A stretch of DNA of 64,000 nucleotides from an uncultured Leptospiraceae bacterium (GTDB lineage: Bacteria; Spirochaetota; UBA4802; UB4802). Of the stretch, positions 24,542 to 33,088 are shown piece by piece. Both the position numbers and the translations under genes were made by a program. The stretch spans positions 6,014-70,013 of the forward strand of contig CAZAOK010000004.1 of NCBI GenBank assembly GCA_964486725.1, in the 5' to 3' direction. The notes under the pieces were generated by a model. It saw only the letters and a program-made list of their open reading frames with translations, did no database searches and was not told the origin of the DNA. Numbering within the stretch: the stretch's first letter is position 1; each line of letters starts with the position of its first letter.

Positions 24542-24660
24542 ATCACCTGCATTTCATATACAAAGTTTTTGTTCTAATATAATAAAATATTATTAGTTTT
24601 TCCATATAAAATTACCATATACAGTGTAGAAATCAAGCTTCATGTTGTCATTTCTTTTTT

Positions 24661-24986
24661 CTCACCACAGGGGCACTGAGAAACAGAGAGTCGCGTTTAT
24701 AGCCCTGTAAGGATTACCACAGAGACGCCAAGTACGCTAAGTTCGCAAAGAAGAAGATGTTTATAAATATTTTGTAATTACTCAGCTGTCATGATTAAAA
24801 GTTTCAATTATCGTAAAATGAATAATAATATTATGGCTCCCCCGCCGAAGGCGGGGGGAGATGATCAATATTTTAGTCATAGCTGAGTAGTAACGGTTAT
24901 TGTTATAAAAATTATTTTCAATTCCCAATAATCCGGAAAGAGTGAATAAAAAAATTACCTCTGTTTATCTGTGCCCCTGCAGTGAA
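24661..24986. repeat. Composite intergenic unit bounded by ~30-bp imperfect inverted repeats and containing repeat copy b plus a 44-nt shared segment
   Basis: The left repeat ctcaccacaggggcactgagaaacagagag (24661-24690) is the imperfect reverse complement of cctctgtttatctgtgcccctgcagtgaa (24958-24986), with about 22 of 30 positions matching. Inside, segment 24895-24938 is the reverse complement of 10094-10136. Confidence 0.4.
24774..24894. repeat. Structured intergenic repeat (MITE/REP-like), copy b
   Basis: Arms gtaattactcagctgtcatg and tcatagctgagtagtaac flank the central hairpin ctcccccgccgaaggcggggggag (24837-24860). Confidence 0.6.
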
Positions 24987-25074
24987 ATTTTTTTACTTAA
25001 GCATAAATGACATAATCCGATGTATTAATTAATCGATAGTTAGTAACACTCCTATTATTACATTTACCGGGTTT

Positions 25075-25118
25075 AAGGCTTTTGCAGACGGCACTCCTGC
25101 AAAAGCCTTACATTTTTT
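25075..25118 (+). terminator. Orphan intrinsic-terminator-like hairpin upstream of tsaC
   Basis: aaggcttttgcag-acggcactc-ctgcaaaagcctt is a 13-bp perfect stem followed by acatttttt on the plus strand. No plus-strand CDS lies upstream of it, only the repeat unit. Confidence 0.4.
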
Positions 25119-25217
25119 CTTGAATTTTTATGTCTCTTCATTGCTGCTGTATTTTATTTTTATTGAAGATGGATTGATAATATGTGTAACAATTTAACTG
25201 TCGTGATATCATAATGG

Positions 25218-25838
25218 GTGCGTGTAATGATATTTGTTGTTAATGAACAAAATCCGCAAAAGCGCTTTATACAGAAAGCCAGTGATATTCTGAAAGAGGG
25301 TGGGGTAATAATCTATCCTACGGATACCGTGTACGCGTATGGTTGTGATATTCAGGACAAACGCGCTATTGAAAAAATTTACCGTTTAAAAAAGATACAC
25401 AGAAATAAACCACTGAGTTTTATATTTTCGGATATATCAGAAATGCACCAGTATGTTCGTAATGTTTCTGATAAAGCTTTTAAAATAATGAGGAAGACTC
25501 TGCCGGGTCCGTATACATACATTTTTAAGGCTTCAAAGCTGGTTCCAAGAATTGCCATCACCAACCAGAAGACCATTGGCGTGAGGATTCCTGCGAGCAA
25601 TATCGCGCTTGAACTTGAGAGAACGCTTGGACGACCAATAATGTCAGCAAGTGTGAATACGTCATCCGGTGATTACATGGTAGATCCGGATGAACTTGAA
25701 AAGCAGTTTCGAAACGAAGTTGACCTGGTATTGAGTGTTGGTCCGCAAAAATCAGAAGTATCCACCATGGTTGACTTTTCACAGGGAGATGTTACAATAC
25801 TGAGGAAAGGAAAAGGCGAACTCTTTTTTCTGGAGTAG
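25218..25838 (+). CDS. tsaC: L-threonylcarbamoyladenylate synthase TsaC/YrdC family
   Basis: 206 aa with GGVIIYPTDTVYAYGCD..AIEKIYRLK and a YrdC fold. The start may be GTG 25218 or ATG 25227. Confidence 0.85.
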   Translation: MRVMIFVVNEQNPQKRFIQKASDILKEGGVIIYPTDTVYAYGCDIQDKRAIEKIYRLKKIHRNKPLSFIFSDISEMHQYVRNVSDKAFKIMRKTLPGPYTYIFKASKLVPRIAITNQKTIGVRIPASNIALELERTLGRPIMSASVNTSSGDYMVDPDELEKQFRNEVDLVLSVGPQKSEVSTMVDFSQGDVTILRKGKGELFFLE

Positions 25839-25849
25839 GAGGATAAAAG

Positions 25850-26176
25850 ATGTCAGACGCAGTGATCCAGTTTTTGAAAAATCTTTTGGCAATTGCAATC
25901 TATATAGGCCTTGGTGCGATAGTATCATGGATTTTCTATACATTGAAGCGACGAGATCTTTTTGGTGGATACATCGGTGGTATGGTGGTAGGGGTCGTGG
26001 GTGCTCTCATTGGTGGATTTGTCCTTGATAAGCTTCTACTGGATATCGTTATTAGAATATTACAGTTTCTTGTATATGAAACAGGAGTTAATATAATCGC
26101 CGGGTTTATTGGTGGATATATAGCGGTATATATAATGAATAAGCTTAACCATGACAAGGAAAGAAAGCGTTACTGA
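25850..26176 (+). CDS. GlsB/YeaQ/YmgE-family stress membrane protein
   Basis: 108 aa with glycine-zipper TM helices (GGYIGGMVVGVVGALIGGFV). A strong AGGAGG RBS is present. Confidence 0.6.
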   Translation: MSDAVIQFLKNLLAIAIYIGLGAIVSWIFYTLKRRDLFGGYIGGMVVGVVGALIGGFVLDKLLLDIVIRILQFLVYETGVNIIAGFIGGYIAVYIMNKLNHDKERKRY

Positions 26177-27828
26177 AATCCTGCCTTTATGGATTCACGG
26201 ATGTCAATCTCCACGTTGGATAAATGTTTTTCTACTTGACCGTATGAAGCAAAGGGCCGCTTAAGAACGATATCCGAGGCTGTTGTTTTGCTGATGCCCG
26301 GTATTATCTCCAGTGCTTTTTTAGGTAGAAGGTTAATAACAATTGGATGAGGAAGCCCGGTAAGGGAGCGCTCGCGCTGGCCGGTGATTATTACGCTTAG
26401 AAACTCTTTTAGTTTTACCGGAAGGGGAATGCGTATAGCTATGGCATAACTTTTCAGCTGTCGTCCCAGGGAATGATCATGATGGCGTTCTTCTATTCTT
26501 ACATCACGCAGAATTGTTCCTGTGGGATATATCCGTTGCAGCATGGTGTGGTCAATATCCTCGCGTATTTTCTGACGGTAATAATCATACCTGTTGCGTA
26601 TCTTAGTGGATATATGATGACCGTCGGCTGCTGCAGGCGTTCCGGGAAAAGGTAATATGCTGCGTATGTTAATACGTTTCAAAAGCAGTCCTTCATCCAA
26701 AATTTCTTTCAGGTAATTATAGTTTATTTTAAAAGTTTCAGCTGTTTCGCCGGGAAGTCCATGTATGAGATTAATTCCAGGAAGTAAGGTATATTGTCCC
26801 CCCGTTTTAAATCCGCCACTCTCGTTAATAAGACGTACCACCTCCTTTACCTGCTCACCCGGTAATTTTAAATTGTTCTTTTTTATTACGGTCGTGTCAA
26901 AAGATTCAACACCCAGGGGCAGCGTATCATCAGGGGTAACCGCATGTGCTATGGCTTCGATAATTTGCGAGGATTCACGGGGATAATGAAAAATGGTGCC
27001 TGGATTGGCATTATCCACGTTTAGTATTTTTATCTGGCCAGCCTCTTTTCGGGATTGTAGTTCTTTAAAAAGGCTGGCAACCAGGCTAACCTCCGGTTTG
27101 GGAAAACCGAAGGTAAATTCATTCATGGTTGACTTATAGGCAATTATGTCGGCCTGCCTTCCGATTCTGAAGCGGGATATGCCCATTTTAATAAGGGTAT
27201 CAACCTCTGTCAGTATTGACAACTGGTTGCGGTATTGCACGTCGCAGCTGTGTATGCTTTCTGAGCAGAATGAGCAATGGGATCTTCTGGGACATCCTCG
27301 ATAGGTTTCGATCTCACATACGAGATGTGGAAAATCCGGGTGTTGGGTCACCATGTGAGCCCCGTACGCTGCCCATCGGTTTAGTTCTTCGTACGTTCTA
27401 TTGCCGTATCCTTTTGAACCACGGGCATACTCATAGGCGAATTTTTCAATGTCGTTTGTACATAAATGAACCTTTTTTAAAATTACATCATCCAGTGTAT
27501 ACGCTACCAGGCCGCCAATAGCAAATTCCAGGTGCGAATTGTTTTGCAGTATGGTATTGATTTCTGATACGGTGCCAATCCTGTAACCAAGGTATTTTCC
27601 CGGTACCGCGGCACCGCCGATCAGTAAAACCATCCTGTATTCATTTTTAATAATGTAGTGACTGCCACGGATCATGTCTATGGTTACATAATCTATGTGG
27701 ACCGGATCAATCCCCGCGTCAACCAACGCGCCATAAATATACCTGGGATAAGGAGAAAGAAAGGGGGGGACACCAAAGCAGGCCGGCTCATCAACGTAAC
27801 AATCCAGTATAAGATATCCCCCACTCAT
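26170..27828 (-). CDS. Radical SAM superfamily protein with N-terminal accessory domain and C-terminal helix-hairpin-helix
   Basis: 552 aa. The cysteine cluster YRGCPRRSHCSFC (Cx5Cx2C) lies in a TIM-barrel-like core (GISRFRIGRQ, ILNVDNANPG, GVESFDT). The C-terminus LTGLPHPIVINLLPKKALEIIPGISKTTASDIV is HhH-like. It is the last gene of a 3-gene minus-strand operon. Confidence 0.65.
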   Translation of the reverse strand: MSGGYLILDCYVDEPACFGVPPFLSPYPRYIYGALVDAGIDPVHIDYVTIDMIRGSHYIIKNEYRMVLLIGGAAVPGKYLGYRIGTVSEINTILQNNSHLEFAIGGLVAYTLDDVILKKVHLCTNDIEKFAYEYARGSKGYGNRTYEELNRWAAYGAHMVTQHPDFPHLVCEIETYRGCPRRSHCSFCSESIHSCDVQYRNQLSILTEVDTLIKMGISRFRIGRQADIIAYKSTMNEFTFGFPKPEVSLVASLFKELQSRKEAGQIKILNVDNANPGTIFHYPRESSQIIEAIAHAVTPDDTLPLGVESFDTTVIKKNNLKLPGEQVKEVVRLINESGGFKTGGQYTLLPGINLIHGLPGETAETFKINYNYLKEILDEGLLLKRINIRSILPFPGTPAAADGHHISTKIRNRYDYYRQKIREDIDHTMLQRIYPTGTILRDVRIEERHHDHSLGRQLKSYAIAIRIPLPVKLKEFLSVIITGQRERSLTGLPHPIVINLLPKKALEIIPGISKTTASDIVLKRPFASYGQVEKHLSNVEIDIRESIKAGFQ

Positions 27829-27829
27829 A

Positions 27830-28411
27830 TTACAGTGTTCTCAGCCGGGAGATTAGTTGTTCAAGATTGCCATTTACATTGCGCTGAAGTTTTTCTTCTA
27901 TAAAATATATCATCCTGCTGTTTAAGAGTATTCGTTCCCGTCGTTCCGGGCTGGTTCCGTATCGATTAAGCAGGTCATTAACGCGCTGATCAACGGTGAC
28001 AATTGTATGATGCATCACCCGTTTATCAGCGTAATATACAATTTCACGTTCTTCAACCGGCCCTTCCGGGTTGAAATTAGTAAAAAAAACGTGTTCGCCT
28101 ACAATGTAGGCAATTTCCGGCATGTCAAGATTTCGAAGGAGTTCTGCCCCGGTTTTGTCATGGGGTTCACCAGTAGAAAGTCCCCGTGTTTTGGTGATAT
28201 CATGCAGAAGGGATGCGGCAAGAAGCAGGTCACGGTTTACGGGATTCTCGTCATTCAGGTTATCAGCTATTGCCAGTGCAACGTTCATAACCTGGCGTGA
28301 GTGTTCAACGATGTTGGGAAGCATCCTGAACTCATTCATCAGGTGATAGCATTCTTTTTCGTCTGGTATTTTTGGATAATTTTTATTCATGAAATAAACC
28401 GGTAACGGCAT
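27830..28411 (-). CDS. HD-domain phosphohydrolase (YqeK-like)
   Basis: 193 aa with HSRQVMNVALAIA..LLLAASLLHDITKT, i.e. HD motif H..D. Its size and motifs resemble the YqeK/HDIG family. It sits 2 nt from the radical SAM gene. Confidence 0.6.
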   Translation of the reverse strand: MPLPVYFMNKNYPKIPDEKECYHLMNEFRMLPNIVEHSRQVMNVALAIADNLNDENPVNRDLLLAASLLHDITKTRGLSTGEPHDKTGAELLRNLDMPEIAYIVGEHVFFTNFNPEGPVEEREIVYYADKRVMHHTIVTVDQRVNDLLNRYGTSPERRERILLNSRMIYFIEEKLQRNVNGNLEQLISRLRTL

Positions 28412-28420
28412 TATTTTTTA

Positions 28421-29614
28421 TCAGTTAAAATAATCGAAAACCATGCCAAAATCAAGGTTGCCGATCTTCCGGCTCTTGTATTTCTCGTAAATACTTCGCC
28501 TGCCGTTTTCAAGGGCCTCGGGTTTTATACCGTATTTAATTGAGAGGGATGCCTCTATGAAGGCGGCAAGATCATCACAACCTTTCAGCATTATGCCATC
28601 GAGGGGATTCCATTTATCATGATTATACGTTGTGTTCATTTTTTCAACGGGTATATCATATTCTATGATTCCGTCACGCATTATCTTGTTGGTAAATTCA
28701 TTTTCAGTAAAATAACGGATCTCTGAATGCCAGCTTTCGGGTATAAGTGGGTAAATTTTTTCTTCCGCCTGGATCTTTTCGTATTCTTTTATGATATCAT
28801 CAAGTCCTTCAACTGATCTTTTAAGTGGTGAGACAATATCACGGGTGAGAACCTCGGGGAGGTCGTGAAAAAGCGAGGCGAAGAAATTATTGTATATCCT
28901 CTGCCTGGTGAATCCTGCTTCCATTGAACAGAAATAACTCAGTATTGCAACTATCAGCATATGACCAAGCACGGAGGTATGGGGTATCCTCGGGGTCTGC
29001 GCCCAGCGTTGTTGCAGGCGTAACTGGCCGCAAAGATTTATGAAACCTGAGATGTCCCTGTGCAGTAAAATTTTCTGAACTCCAACAAGGTCGTTGTGTT
29101 TTTCAATCTGGGCTTCTATCTCACCTTTTGTTTTGTCAATATCCTGCATGAACGAATTGCCGGGGTATATTAACCTGAATTCCCAGTTGGTGGCAAGATA
29201 ATGGGCTGCCCGAAGAATTCTTTTTTCAACAACCGAGTAATTCTCGTTAAAAAAATATTCCTCGAACTTGTCACTGAATTCACCTGCAATGGTATTGATA
29301 TCCCCCTGGAGTTCCTGCAGCACCCAGCGGTTCAGTTCATTTCCCTTTTCTTTCATGATTTTATGAAAAACCGGCGGCTTGATGTCGGTTACCACTACCC
29401 GGTGAAGAAATTCAATTATTCCGCCTTCAATGAGTTTTATCCAGTTAAATACATGGCTGCCTGATTCTGATTCATACCTGGCGATCACGTAGGCGATGAT
29501 CATTTTATGAGCCTGCTTGTCAAGTTCTGTAAGCTCTGCTGGCCGAAGATGATCATTCCATCGCTGAATGCTGGCCGCCTGATGTATCCACTCTATTGCA
29601 CCCTTGCTGAACAT
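28421..29614 (-). CDS. Tandem YfbR-like HD-domain protein (5'-deoxynucleotidase-like; first repeat degenerate)
   Basis: The C-terminal half (LQQRWAQTPRIPHTSVLGHMLIVAIL..ASLFHDLPEVLTRDIVSPLKR) resembles YfbR (INRWPLMRN..EHSLQVAMVAHALA..HDASEVLTGDLPTPVK). The N-terminal half repeats the pattern (ASIQRWNDHLRPAELTELDKQAHKMIIAYVIA) but lacks the His. Start chosen at ATG 29614 (GGAGG RBS); the track ORF extends to 29785. Confidence 0.55.
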   Translation of the reverse strand: MFSKGAIEWIHQAASIQRWNDHLRPAELTELDKQAHKMIIAYVIARYESESGSHVFNWIKLIEGGIIEFLHRVVVTDIKPPVFHKIMKEKGNELNRWVLQELQGDINTIAGEFSDKFEEYFFNENYSVVEKRILRAAHYLATNWEFRLIYPGNSFMQDIDKTKGEIEAQIEKHNDLVGVQKILLHRDISGFINLCGQLRLQQRWAQTPRIPHTSVLGHMLIVAILSYFCSMEAGFTRQRIYNNFFASLFHDLPEVLTRDIVSPLKRSVEGLDDIIKEYEKIQAEEKIYPLIPESWHSEIRYFTENEFTNKIMRDGIIEYDIPVEKMNTTYNHDKWNPLDGIMLKGCDDLAAFIEASLSIKYGIKPEALENGRRSIYEKYKSRKIGNLDFGMVFDYFN

Positions 29615-29813
29615 CCATGCCTCCATTATGATCATGTACACTGGTAAACAGTCTACATACCACCCTCCAGATGTCAGTAACATTTTTTCATTTGCCAGTG
29701 AACATAGCGACTTCGCGGTGATCCTGAAGAGTAATCGGTGCTGATAAAATAATACTTGCAACAGGGCAATATATATATGCATCATAATGAAAAATTAATT
29801 ACAAGGAGTGGGC

Positions 29814-30874: not shown

Positions 30875-33088
30875 TTATTTCTCATCCCGCATTTGAGGGA
30901 AGAACACCTCAACCATATCGGCATGGGATGAGGCGGTAAAAAGCTTTTCCCGGTTTTCTTCGTTCATTATGAATTTAGAAATCTCAGAGAGCGTGTTTAT
31001 GTGCTCGTTGGGCTTGTTACGAGGACTTAACACCATAAAAACCAGGTGAACCTCATCGTTGTTTATCTTCGAAATAACCCTGCGGGTTGTTTTCGCTACC
31101 ATGACGATGGATTCGTCCAGCTTCTCTGAGTAGCCATGGGGCAGGGCGATGTTAAAACCGATAAGACTGGAATACTCGTTCTCAATATCCATCATGTGCT
31201 TGTGAATGCTGGCAGTCTCCAGGTCGGGATAATCATTTCTCAATATATTCAGAAGTTCTTCAATTACATCGGACATTGAGCGGGCCGATGTAATTGTAAT
31301 CCATTCAGGTTTAATGTGCAGGTCAACGCTGACGGTAAAAGGCTGATAAATAAGAAATATGCATGGACCTTTGGCATCTTCCGGGAGAAATGGATGTATA
31401 CTGTCATCTATTCTGCTCATCAAGACCCTCTCTGGATGATTGATAGACTCGGCATTACCTTGTCCCTGCATAAAAGAGATATCCCTGTTTTCCACACTCA
31501 TCTTTATTACTCTACCAAGTGGCAGGCTTGTCCAGACAGGGGTTCCCGATAATACTGTTTCAGAGGTTTGTTCATCCTCTGGAAGAGACAACTGTCGCCA
31601 CTGGTAAAGGTTGGGGTTTCTTAACTTTTTACTCCAACGCTGACATATGAGTTCGTTCAGTTCTTCGTTTTCAGTTATTGCAAGCACATTCCCAATTCCA
31701 AAAAGTTCGGGTGTATTGTCGGGGTTAACTGTTATGGCATTATCCGAAATGGCAACAAATCCGTTTCTGCGGGCAACAGCTGCCAATCTTATGTTTGTGT
31801 CTATCAAGGTGACTGGCCGTCCCTGGTCCTGTATAAAGTTTGCCACGATGCGTCCCAGCTTATGCGCTCCAACGATTAGCCAGCCTGTTGGCTCAGGCTC
31901 GTGAACCTTTAAAAGCCTGGCTACCCATTTTGCTGAGAATCCCTGTAGAATAACTGTACCGCTAATTACGGCGTAGGTAAATGCTTCTAAAAACTCAGCC
32001 TGTTGTGAGTAATTACCGTTTGAAGATGCTTTCAGATTTAATGCGAACAGTGAAGCCATAGAGGCCGCAACGATACCCCGTGGCGCAATCCAGCTCAGGA
32101 AGAGTTTATCCCTGAAGGTAAAGTTTTTGCTGCCCAGTGTGCTGATAAAAATATTCAGGGGACGAACAACAATCATGACCAGGATAACGGCAACCAGGAT
32201 TTTTATCAGGTATTCTCCCCTGTATGTTTCGATGGCCAGGTTGGCGGCAAGCAATACGAAAAGCAGCCCGATGAGCAGTTCAATGAGCTGGGCCTTGTAA
32301 ACCTTTATCCTGTCAATTTGCGGAGTATCAGAGGTCCCGATAACAAAACCTGCAATAACCACACTCAGAAGACCACTTTCTAGTACCAGCATATCAGAAA
32401 GGGTGTATATGCCAAGGGCGGCGGCCAACACGAAAATATTCAGATTTTCTTCGGGTATCCAGTTTTTTCTTATAATACGGGCAATAATTAATCCACAGAC
32501 AACCCCGATGGCAATCCCTGAAGAGAACCGTGACAAAAATAGCAGAATAGCATCATGACCGATAATCCACTCATAACACAGCAGAGCAATAAAGACGCCG
32601 ATAGGATCGATAAGAACCCCTTCCCAGTGAAGAAAATTGTTTAATTTCTGATGCACCCCAACTCTCTTCAGAAGTGGACCGATAACAGTGGGCCCAGTTA
32701 CAATAACCAGGCTGCCAGCTAAAATGGATAGGGCCCAGGGGTATCCCATAACGTACTTAACAACAACCGCGGTGCAAAGCCAGGTTATTACCACCCCCCT
32801 TGTCAGTACAGCTCGTATTTCCGATGAAACCTGGCGGTAGCCTTTCAGGTCAAGTGTTAAGCCCCCCTCGAAAAGTATGAGGGCAACCGATATCTGTATT
32901 ATGGCTTCAAGGCCTTCACCAAGAAGTGCAGGATCTATTATGTTAAGCCGGTAGGCACCGGGTCCAACCGCTATACCACCAATCAAGAGAATTACGATTG
33001 GTGAAATTTTCATTCTTTTGGCGATAGTAACAAACAGAATTCCAAAAAACAGGGCAAGGCCAAATGTTGTAATAAGCTGATGTGTCAT
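30875..33088 (-). CDS. CPA1 Na+/H+ antiporter fused to RCK (TrkA-N) and PTS EIIA(Ntr)-type regulatory domains
   Basis: 737 aa with about 12 TM segments (NhaP-like). It also has a Rossmann RCK segment (LIVGAHKLGRIVANFI..GRPVTLID) and a C-terminal EIIA type 2 domain with an ALPHG phosphorylation-loop motif. Confidence 0.8.
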   Translation of the reverse strand: MTHQLITTFGLALFFGILFVTIAKRMKISPIVILLIGGIAVGPGAYRLNIIDPALLGEGLEAIIQISVALILFEGGLTLDLKGYRQVSSEIRAVLTRGVVITWLCTAVVVKYVMGYPWALSILAGSLVIVTGPTVIGPLLKRVGVHQKLNNFLHWEGVLIDPIGVFIALLCYEWIIGHDAILLFLSRFSSGIAIGVVCGLIIARIIRKNWIPEENLNIFVLAAALGIYTLSDMLVLESGLLSVVIAGFVIGTSDTPQIDRIKVYKAQLIELLIGLLFVLLAANLAIETYRGEYLIKILVAVILVMIVVRPLNIFISTLGSKNFTFRDKLFLSWIAPRGIVAASMASLFALNLKASSNGNYSQQAEFLEAFTYAVISGTVILQGFSAKWVARLLKVHEPEPTGWLIVGAHKLGRIVANFIQDQGRPVTLIDTNIRLAAVARRNGFVAISDNAITVNPDNTPELFGIGNVLAITENEELNELICQRWSKKLRNPNLYQWRQLSLPEDEQTSETVLSGTPVWTSLPLGRVIKMSVENRDISFMQGQGNAESINHPERVLMSRIDDSIHPFLPEDAKGPCIFLIYQPFTVSVDLHIKPEWITITSARSMSDVIEELLNILRNDYPDLETASIHKHMMDIENEYSSLIGFNIALPHGYSEKLDESIVMVAKTTRRVISKINNDEVHLVFMVLSPRNKPNEHINTLSEISKFIMNEENREKLFTASSHADMVEVFFPQMRDEK

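Follow-up and report, generated by a model that had tools for sequence, protein, structure and literature searches.

Within the window, a stretch of 64,000 nucleotides from an uncultured Leptospiraceae bacterium, a string of three genes consists of a stand-alone YfbR-like gene and an HD/radical SAM gene pair that is conserved across a Spirochaetota (Leptospirales-like) clade. Judged by its sequence, the radical SAM protein is a member of COG1031, a family that is catalogued but uncharacterised. The pair most likely encodes a housekeeping nucleic-acid (probably RNA) modification enzyme with an accessory phosphohydrolase. We give about an even chance to the overall explanation, namely an independent YfbR-like gene and an HDIG/radical SAM pair that belongs to a nucleic-acid-modifying housekeeping pathway. 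The features of the locus are listed in Table 1.

Table 1. Features of the three-gene locus (positions in the window)
Feature	Position	Strand	Basis
Radical SAM protein, COG1031 family, 552 aa	26170..27828	-	ORF; PF04055 34.5 bits; AF2 pLDDT 90.9
N-terminal Rossmann-like accessory domain, residues 1-165	27334..27828	-	strand/helix alternation in AF2 model
Cluster motif C179-x5-C185-x2-C188 (GCPRRSHCSFC)	27265..27294	-	Cys invariant in 42 family members
Radical SAM barrel core, residues ~166-402	26623..27333	-	PF04055 on residues 173-354
C-terminal five-strand beta-barrel, residues ~435-495, S1/TRAM-like OB fold	26344..26526	-	
ComEA-like helix-hairpin-helix (HhH) tail, residues ~497-552	26173..26340	-	family profile vs PDB; Pfam
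Small HDIG-type HD phosphohydrolase, 193 aa	27830..28411	-	PF01966 50.2 bits; TIGR00277 44.3 bits (cutoff 27.6)
Two-lobed YfbR-like/HD_3 protein, 397 aa	28421..29614	-	PF13023, PF12917 on residues 191-372
GGAGG ribosome-binding site	29620..29624	-	read from sequence, 5 nt upstream of ATG 29614

The three adjoining minus-strand genes reported in the initial annotation are present as consecutive open reading frames, the last of which extends over 28421-29785. The ATG at 29785 is the first of that frame; the biologically supported start is at 29614. The latter is preferred because of the GGAGG just upstream of it, and it agrees with the length of the YfbR-like homologues, which are 397-399 aa at 100% coverage. 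The gap between the YfbR-like gene and the small HD gene is 9 nt, as annotated, or 30 nt if the HD protein starts at Met8 (nt 28390, the NCBI start) and has 186 aa. The gap between the small HD gene and the radical SAM gene was counted as 1 nt, not 2 nt.

Conservation of the neighbourhood was assessed at 57 informative Spirochaetota genome loci, each with a radical SAM protein at least 46% identical to the one in the window. The small HD gene was found immediately upstream of the radical SAM gene at all 57. Across the pair-bearing loci, identity goes down to 46% for the radical SAM protein and to about 41% for the HD protein. In relatives the two reading frames abut or often overlap through their stop and start codons, and the pair is probably translationally coupled. 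The YfbR-like gene is next to the pair at six of the 57 loci, in the closest relatives only, and at four of these six other genes intervene. Thus, of the three-gene module proposed initially, the HD and radical SAM genes are co-conserved but the YfbR-like gene is not part of the unit. Both genes of the pair appear to be inherited vertically. With the exception of two assemblies, no contig carries more than a single such locus.

It is conceivable that the adjacency is inherited synteny only and that the members of the pair are independent housekeeping genes working in separate pathways. Each family is indeed common without the other: 21 radical SAM loci of Archaea, Leptospiraceae and Brevinematales (39-43% identity) lack an HD gene in flanks of up to 6 kb on each side, and among 63 metagenomic HD loci the pair occurs in 25 while the radical SAM gene is absent, with no consistent partner, from 38. 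Moreover, HD homologues that are 50-58% identical lie beside unrelated genes in Smithella/Syntrophaceae-type contigs. Since each of the two is found without the other, the HD protein is not an obligate subunit. The gene neighbourhoods of homologues outside the clade were uninformative. What argues against mere synteny is that the pair is kept at every informative locus over a deep divergence, and that the surroundings change, with several different contexts among loci, while the frames stay abutted or overlapping. In addition, the HD proteins linked to the radical SAM gene form mostly pure clades in the tree, apart from the radical-SAM-free ones. Two independent genes are therefore an unlikely, though not a negligible, reading of the pair.

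The radical SAM protein, which had been described as a 552-aa enzyme with a Cx5Cx2C motif, an accessory domain at the N terminus and an HhH at the C terminus, has all of these features, as seen in its PF04055 match, the AF2 model, Pfam and the search of its profile against PDB. C179, C185 and C188 are the sole invariant cysteines among 42 diverse members of the family, over which the first spacing of the motif ranges from 4 to 9 residues. The N-domain bears the family signature D-x-Y-x-D-E-P-x-x-x-G-V-P-P, and its residues D13, P15, P22 and R29 are invariant family-wide. The HhH tail is matched by the ComEA-related protein 2duy when the family profile is searched against PDB (E=4e-5), and Pfam HHH_3, HHH and HHH_5 match homologues of the protein. 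Membership of COG1031 is indicated by full-length homologues at 51-57% identity that bear the JGI/IMG name 'radical SAM superfamily enzyme with C-terminal helix-hairpin-helix motif'. COG1031 members and the protein in the window have four features in common, namely the signature of the N-domain, the cluster motif, the barrel and the HhH tail. The Spirochaetota branch differs from the rest of COG1031 in that it has gained the upstream HDIG partner and two clade-specific residues of the N-domain, C10 and C17, which are conserved within this branch only. COG1031 is an archaeal signature COG, mainly archaeal and also found in Thermotoga; among the archaea it is found in Methanosarcinales.

No curated family assigns a function to the radical SAM protein, all curated models scoring far below cutoff, and the source names of its homologues are generic as regards function ('radical SAM protein'). 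It does not fall into any characterised housekeeping family. TIGR03916, a putative DNA modification/repair radical SAM family, gave no match at E<=0.1. The YgiQ/UPF0313 family was rejected, since TIGR03904 reached 17.7 bits against a cutoff of 462 and covered the cluster motif only (residues 171-215).

From these features, the following activity may be proposed. The single Cx5Cx2C [4Fe-4S] cluster would generate the 5'-deoxyadenosyl radical from SAM. As far as the modelled folds indicate, the enzyme may act on a nucleic-acid substrate gripped by the barrel together with the HhH tail, and RNA would be likelier than DNA. RimO, which has the same scaffold, has a protein substrate. Methylthiolation could not be the reaction. 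The HD enzyme of this clade would belong to the same pathway, where it may cleave a phosphoester of either the substrate or the product, or remove a nucleotide that arises as a by-product.

The small HD protein was initially assigned to the YqeK/Ap4A-hydrolase type. Its place among HD proteins of the HDIG type stands, with a score above the HDIG family cutoff, and H37, H70-D71, H84, H107 and D129 are invariant. By its sequence, it has the complete H..HD..H..H..D ligand set of the two-metal-binding kind, and its AF2 model has a pLDDT of 92.3. This ligand set in an HD fold of about 190 aa is shared with YqeK, and a YqeK-type structure is the top fold neighbour. However, the margin is narrow, and many unrelated HD domains (GppA, GlyRS-beta and HD-GYP among them) score near YqeK in the fold search. 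Identity to YqeK and other small two-metal HD phosphohydrolases (PDB 2o08, 8wmy) is 14-20%. No YqeK model matches the protein at E<=0.1, and only the NadD-YqeK fusion model NF005519 gave a score, 11.9 bits where 315 are required. In sequence the protein comes closest to the HD half of DVU_1551-family NTP transferases, with 118 bits, which is still under the cutoff. YqeK is thus the nearest fold, yet the protein lies outside the YqeK family. The idea that the radical SAM enzyme is paired with dNMP- and Ap4A-degrading enzymes rests on the failed YqeK assignment and on a YfbR-like neighbour that is outside the conserved unit.

The YfbR-like protein had been described as a fused pseudo-dimer whose first copy lacks the catalytic His. 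Its C half is solidly YfbR-like/HD_3 and keeps the HD motif, with 103 bits for PF13023 (gathering 22.5) and 60.2 bits for PF12917 (gathering 25.9), the families of the 5'-deoxynucleotidases YfbR, AF1432 and OxsA. The protein is twice as long as these enzymes and has in addition a putative degenerate N lobe. The N half matches PF12917 weakly but in register (13.2 bits, E=0.071, residues 10-142), and hhalign aligned the two halves in the same register (P=0.056), with E-F in place of the HD dyad and His in place of the last Asp. These weak matches and substitutions make a degenerate YfbR-like first copy plausible, not proven. The protein scores 40.8 bits with the YfbR equivalog NF003009, below the cutoff of 122, and is probably a (deoxy)nucleotide phosphatase. 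The family is widespread, with more than 7,500 matches across phyla; homologues from Nitrospirota, Desulfobacterota, Bacillota and others share 57-66% identity with the protein. In Desulforhabdus the gene lies beside tmk, dUTPase and thyX; a radical SAM gene is absent from its vicinity there, and none was found near it in the other phyla either. The YfbR-like gene is therefore a stand-alone gene that neighbours the pair through local synteny.

The C half also matches OxsA (E=0.0034), and reviews describe OxsB as working with an HD partner. This might suggest a small-molecule system of the OxsA/OxsB kind, in which a free (deoxy)nucleotide is rebuilt by a radical SAM enzyme of the cobalamin type and one or more HD phosphohydrolases trim its phosphates. 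The OxsA-like gene, however, is not co-conserved with the pair and is independent of it in other phyla; its product has no functional link to the radical SAM gene, and the HD protein that is conserved is of the HDIG type, not of the OxsA type. No PF02310 or other B12-binding Pfam domain was detected in the radical SAM protein. Of the cobalamin-type models, TIGR04013 gave 31.9 bits (cutoff 251) and TIGR04014 24.7 bits (cutoff 360); sequence matches to these class B enzymes, notably MgmA (PDB 9ccb; TIGR04014), are limited to the radical SAM core. By analogy with MgmA, the N-domain could bind cobalamin. MgmA lacks the S1/TRAM barrel and the HhH tail. In the radical SAM protein these two parts point to a polymer substrate, and the surroundings of the pair hold no biosynthetic cluster. 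We regard an OxsA/OxsB-like system as improbable.

The structural relatives of the radical SAM protein are found chiefly among methylthiotransferases. A Foldseek search with its model gave MiaB as the best match (E=4.7e-18), followed by an MtaB model, by RimO and by MgmA, and its profile matched MgmA (1.3e-10) and RimO (2.6e-8) in PDB. The N-domain aligns with those of MgmA, RimO and MiaB, and the core ends in a segment, '...INIRS..PFPGTPAA', that by eye resembles methylthiotransferases. The order of N-domain, radical SAM core and C-terminal TRAM barrel is also that of MiaB, MtaB and RimO (PDB 7mjv, 4jc0), to which the HhH tail is an extra. One may speculate that the methylthiotransferase scaffold has a fourth branch that has escaped recognition, COG1031, and that its enzymes use radical chemistry for a non-sulfur tRNA or rRNA modification, perhaps helped by a cofactor bound in the N-domain that bears the signature; this is a long shot. 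A possible reaction is C-methylation of t6A37 to give hn6A. Besides archaea, hn6A has been reported in Thermotoga. It is present in Methanosarcina acetivorans and M. jannaschii, and the origin of its hydroxynorvaline moiety is stated as unknown (PMC10702137). The candidate is drawn from the spread of hn6A set against that of COG1031 (Methanosarcinales, Archaea generally and Thermotoga), and from tsaC/sua5, to which the radical SAM gene is convergent in about half of the Spirochaetota genome loci and in the window. If this fourth branch is real, its pathway would have gained the HDIG protein as a new partner in the Spirochaetota branch.

The same likeness in fold and domain order might indicate a divergent methylthiotransferase, a housekeeping paralogue of MiaB, MtaB or RimO, and TIGR00089 (MiaB/RimO) does align weakly with residues 88-491 (E=2.4e-5). 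However, the scores for TIGR00089, TIGR01578 and TIGR01125 (23.3, 23.6 and 14.0 bits) are far below the cutoffs (251, 315 and 357), in general about tenfold. The motif in MiaB, MtaB and RimO is Cx3Cx2C whereas that of the radical SAM family is Cx(4-9)Cx2C. These enzymes have three conserved N-terminal (UPF0004) cysteines for a sulfur-carrying auxiliary [4Fe-4S] cluster, and the 42 family members have no invariant cysteine in the N-domain. Since it lacks the auxiliary-cluster cysteines, the protein is not regarded as a methylthiotransferase, and a paralogue of this kind is very improbable.

A three-gene nucleotide-signalling or antiviral module, raised in the initial annotation by analogy with viperin, is scarcely credible: a radical SAM gene does lie beside HD hydrolases, and the small HD protein has a weak Cas3-HD match (E=0.0018) that covers the generic HD motif only, but co-conservation does not extend to all three genes, neither viperin nor any defence model is matched by the radical SAM protein, in line with the earlier remark that it is not obviously viperin-like, PADLOC gave no match to it or to the YfbR-like protein, and the synteny is stable, with no mobile-element genes among the recurrent neighbours. 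The favoured role of the pair would be housekeeping rather than defence or signalling. We infer this from the PADLOC result together with the spread of COG1031 in Archaea and Thermotoga and the neighbours of the pair, which are housekeeping genes of the relA, maf, Sua5/TsaC, recO and uvrC type.

The small HD gene and the radical SAM gene form a conserved unit, and the YfbR-like gene is a bystander. Identity of the radical SAM protein to that of the window reaches 46% or more in 58 loci of the genome scan. Of these, 57 have upstream sequence, and in all 57 the small HD gene lies directly upstream of the radical SAM gene on the same strand. In complete-genome examples the overlap between the two is 4-7 nt, and the surroundings of the pair vary (relA-maf-tsaC, recO...uvrC, proS/ETF, acyl-CoA ligase). 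The YfbR-like gene is near the pair in six of these 57 loci only, and in four of the six a DUF6873 gene, sometimes together with a small membrane ORF, intervenes; it is also nearby in four metagenomic loci. The three-gene nucleotide-modification, signalling or antiviral module proposed in the initial annotation is thus reduced to a pair.

The pairing is restricted to one lineage. The 21 loci from archaea, Leptospiraceae and Brevinematales whose radical SAM protein is 39-43% identical all lack an HD gene within their flanks. When a metagenome scan was seeded with the small HD protein, 63 loci had downstream room, and the radical SAM gene was found in 25 of them and not in the other 38, whose neighbours included no consistent partner. 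In a neighbour-joining tree, HD proteins linked to a radical SAM gene and those without one form, for the most part, pure clades of their own. On these sequences the linkage is consistent with one recruitment event and subsequent co-inheritance.

In the window, all three ORFs have many homologues and are therefore real genes. Their description as minus-strand genes, with their coordinates and the cluster motif, was largely correct. The extent 28421-29614 for the YfbR-like gene is right because the ATG at 29614, with GGAGG 5 nt upstream, gives a protein of 397 aa, as in its homologues (397-399 aa, 100% coverage). Of the two intergenic distances reported, 9 nt stands, but the other is 1 nt rather than 2 nt by sequence: the TAA of the small HD gene is at 27830-27832 and, after one base, the radical SAM ATG is at 27828. 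NCBI starts the small HD gene at Met8 (186 aa). The flanking genes matched by Pfam are Maf, RelA/SpoT, Sua5/TsaC, a flavin-reductase-like gene and a HycI-like protease, together with a small membrane protein whose Transgly_assoc match is weak and sub-threshold. The 3' ends of the small membrane gene and the radical SAM gene overlap by 7 nt, and about half of the genome loci from Spirochaetota share the arrangement of tsaC and the membrane gene. Rfam found four tRNAs only across the window, and promoter and terminator signals there were not above shuffled expectation. In the closest relative, an uncultured Leptospiraceae MAG (L006), the gene order is identical and the proteins are 81-99% identical to those of the window. 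Two features of the surroundings, a sodium/proton exchanger with an unusual regulatory fusion and a long gap without ORFs, are included in the table.

Features of the window and of numbered loci (L) from other genomes
Feature	Position	Strand	Remark
Radical SAM ORF	26170-27828	-	552 aa
Small HD ORF	27830-28411	-	193 aa
YfbR-like ORF	28421-29785	-	supported start 29614, 397 aa
Sua5/TsaC (t6A synthesis) and small membrane gene	25218-26176	+	convergent to radical SAM gene
Space between relA/spoT and tsaC	24542-25217		676 nt; no ORF of at least 60 aa, no Rfam match
Na+/H+ exchanger	30875-33088	-	C-terminal PTS EIIA-2 domain fused
SAM hydroxide adenosyltransferase	L001/L023 4631-5404; also L020, L032, L040, L041, L048	same as pair	DUF62; SAM_HAT_N/C
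DUF6873	L007 4680-5408; also L008, L009, L010, L012, L018, L023, L028, L032, L044	same as pair	~240 aa
TrkA_N-DHH-DHHA1 phosphoesterase, then MptE-like gene overlapping family member	L089 3902-7659		Methanocorpusculum
Family-B DNA polymerase (PolB), then family member	L091 3503-7641		Methanopyrus; family member starts 6 nt past PolB gene

The radical SAM protein is a member of COG1031. Its architecture resembles that of MTTases, it lacks ligands for an auxiliary cluster, and the modules at its C-terminus are of the nucleic-acid type. Pfam matched PF04055 alone. No NCBIfam model was near its cutoff, TIGR03916 did not match, and the YgiQ model, which the initial annotation had suggested checking with B12-binding families, touched the cluster motif only and below cutoff. 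The best sub-cutoff matches were TIGR04013 and TIGR04014 (B12-type radical SAM), yet far from cutoff, and TIGR00089 (MiaB/RimO) over residues 88-491; B12 dependence is not supported by the family models. Full-length homologues at 51-57% identity are mostly from Spirochaetota MAGs and are named 'radical SAM protein' by NCBI; JGI gives them the name of COG1031, 'radical SAM superfamily enzyme with C-terminal helix-hairpin-helix motif'. The family comprises 494 clusters at 50% identity in an exhaustive HMMER search, with members all generically named 'radical SAM protein', which gives no functional clue, and more than 590 loci in the genome scan, including Methanosarcinales, Methanoperedens and Methanimicrococcus at ~40% identity; Methanocorpusculum and Methanopyrus also have members. 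COG1031 has been catalogued for more than two decades and is widespread in Archaea and some anaerobic bacteria. To our knowledge, no function has been assigned to it. A 2008 list of archaeal signature COGs includes it as one shared with Thermotoga maritima (PMC2464742). Literature searches for 'COG1031' found nothing beyond one incidental mention, and those for radical SAM together with helix-hairpin-helix or TRAM found nothing.

The AF2 model of the protein (pLDDT 90.9, pTM 0.90) has four parts: a Rossmann-like N-domain (residues 1 to ~165), which corresponds to the N-terminal accessory domain already recognized, the radical SAM barrel, a beta-barrel (439-493) and a helical tail. Foldseek placed MiaB first (E=4.7e-18), followed by an MtaB model, RimO and MgmA. 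Searched with the family profile, the PDB yields a ComEA-related HhH protein (E=4e-5), and Pfam HHH models match homologues, which bears out the C-terminal helix-hairpin-helix that had been read from the sequence. The protein therefore resembles MTTases in its scaffold but differs from them in lacking the auxiliary-cluster cysteines and in the added HhH tail.

In an alignment of 42 diverse family members, D13, P15, P22, R29, G178, C179, C185, C188, N273, V314, G357, L358 and R389 are invariant. No cysteine is invariant except the cluster ligands C179, C185 and C188. The auxiliary-cluster cysteines that define MTTases are not conserved; MTTase identity was rejected, and we consider it highly improbable that the protein is a true MTTase in spite of the shared scaffold. 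The Cx5Cx2C motif had been read correctly and is a trait of the family, in which the first and second cluster cysteines are spaced by 4 to 9 residues. The N-terminal signature of the family is D-(G/C)-Y-x-D-E-P-x-x-x-G-V-P-P-(Y/F). C10 and C17 (window 27778-27801) are invariant or nearly so in the HD-linked branch of Spirochaetota, and the rest of the family has Gly at the former position and Thr, Ala or Ser at the latter; these clade-specific cysteines coincide with the HD partnership. Long family members contain radical SAM and HhH domains only, with no informative fusion. One apparent histidine-kinase fusion was seen, which could reflect a chimera or a gene-calling error.

The small HD protein has a PF01966 match and scores above the cutoff of the HDIG model TIGR00277. 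By sequence it is closest to DVU_1551-family NTP transferases, in their HD half (118 bits, below cutoff); an aTrm56-HD fusion, again in its HD portion, and the archaeal TIGR00295 match more weakly. Its earlier description as YqeK type was fair as to the fold, but no YqeK model in NCBIfam matched, so the family assignment falls. The invariant residues H37, H70-D71, H84, H107 and D129 make up the six ligands characteristic of two-metal HD enzymes.

The 397-aa YfbR-like protein has a clear HD_3/YfbR-like domain in its C half (Pfam), with weak PDB matches to AF1432, YfbR and OxsA. The N half has a YfbR-like match in register but sub-threshold (E=0.071), and the profile-profile match between the halves has P=0.056, with HD changed to EF and the terminal Asp to His. 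Of the fused pseudo-dimer suggested earlier, the C half is clear; from these weak matches, it is plausible that the N half is a degenerate first lobe. The family has more than 7,500 matches across phyla, and the 120 matches listed have 57-66% identity or above. In Desulforhabdus the gene is convergent with tmk, dUTPase and thyX, and in an alphaproteobacterial MAG it lies amid unrelated genes; neither has a radical SAM gene nearby.

It is plausible that the radical SAM protein carries out a 5'-deoxyadenosyl-radical reaction on nucleic acid. The S1/TRAM barrel and kinship with MTTases would favour RNA as the substrate, and DNA may also serve because of the ComEA-like HhH. The small HD protein would be an accessory phosphohydrolase in the Spirochaetota clade, and the vertical pattern and housekeeping synteny argue for a housekeeping role. 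Taken jointly, these three proposals seem to us about evenly poised between true and false. That the adjacency of the pair is pure inherited synteny is rather unlikely. An OxsA/OxsB-like free-nucleotide system is less likely still. COG1031 might also represent a tRNA-modifying branch of the MTTase scaffold whose chemistry does not involve sulfur, e.g. by methylation of t6A to hn6A, which we regard as a long shot. Both Methanosarcina acetivorans and M. jannaschii contain hn6A, whose hydroxynorvaline is described as being of unknown origin, and current opinion prefers direct hydroxynorvaline incorporation (PMC10702137); in the window, as in about half of the genome loci from Spirochaetota, the radical SAM gene is convergent to tsaC. 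A module for defence or signalling, drawn earlier by analogy to viperin, is very improbable, as PADLOC models gave nothing meaningful.

The HDIG hydrolase and this radical SAM protein, which belongs to a long-known orphan family, are a well-defined lineage-specific pairing. What is new, relative to characterised MTTases and class-B radical SAM enzymes and in a family already catalogued, is a scaffold resembling that of MTTases which has lost the sulfur-donating cluster, carries predicted nucleic-acid-binding modules and is locked, in one bacterial clade, to a two-metal-type HD phosphohydrolase. This offers a handle for function assignment: a possible partner is at hand, a class of substrate is suggested, and some hosts are genetically tractable. 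It also corrects the three-gene nucleotide or antiviral picture, with no pointer to defence.

Outside the Spirochaetota clade, no recurrent neighbours were found among the 21 loci at 39-43% identity, nor in Methanocorpusculum, Methanopyrus and two further lineages. In Methanoperedens the radical SAM gene is followed by an HTH protein, an arrangement that is not recurrent, and in a Brevinematales locus the ORF upstream looked penicillin-binding-protein-like by eye. The Brevinematales contig JAGVOW010000036.1 (L076/L077) has two inverted radical SAM regions in mirror-image order, probably an assembly palindrome artefact. Two genes absent from the window lie upstream of the pair elsewhere: that for the DUF6873 protein in about ten loci, and that for SAM hydroxide adenosyltransferase, directly upstream, in six distinct Spirochaetota loci, where a SAM-cleaving enzyme is thereby placed beside a SAM-consuming one.
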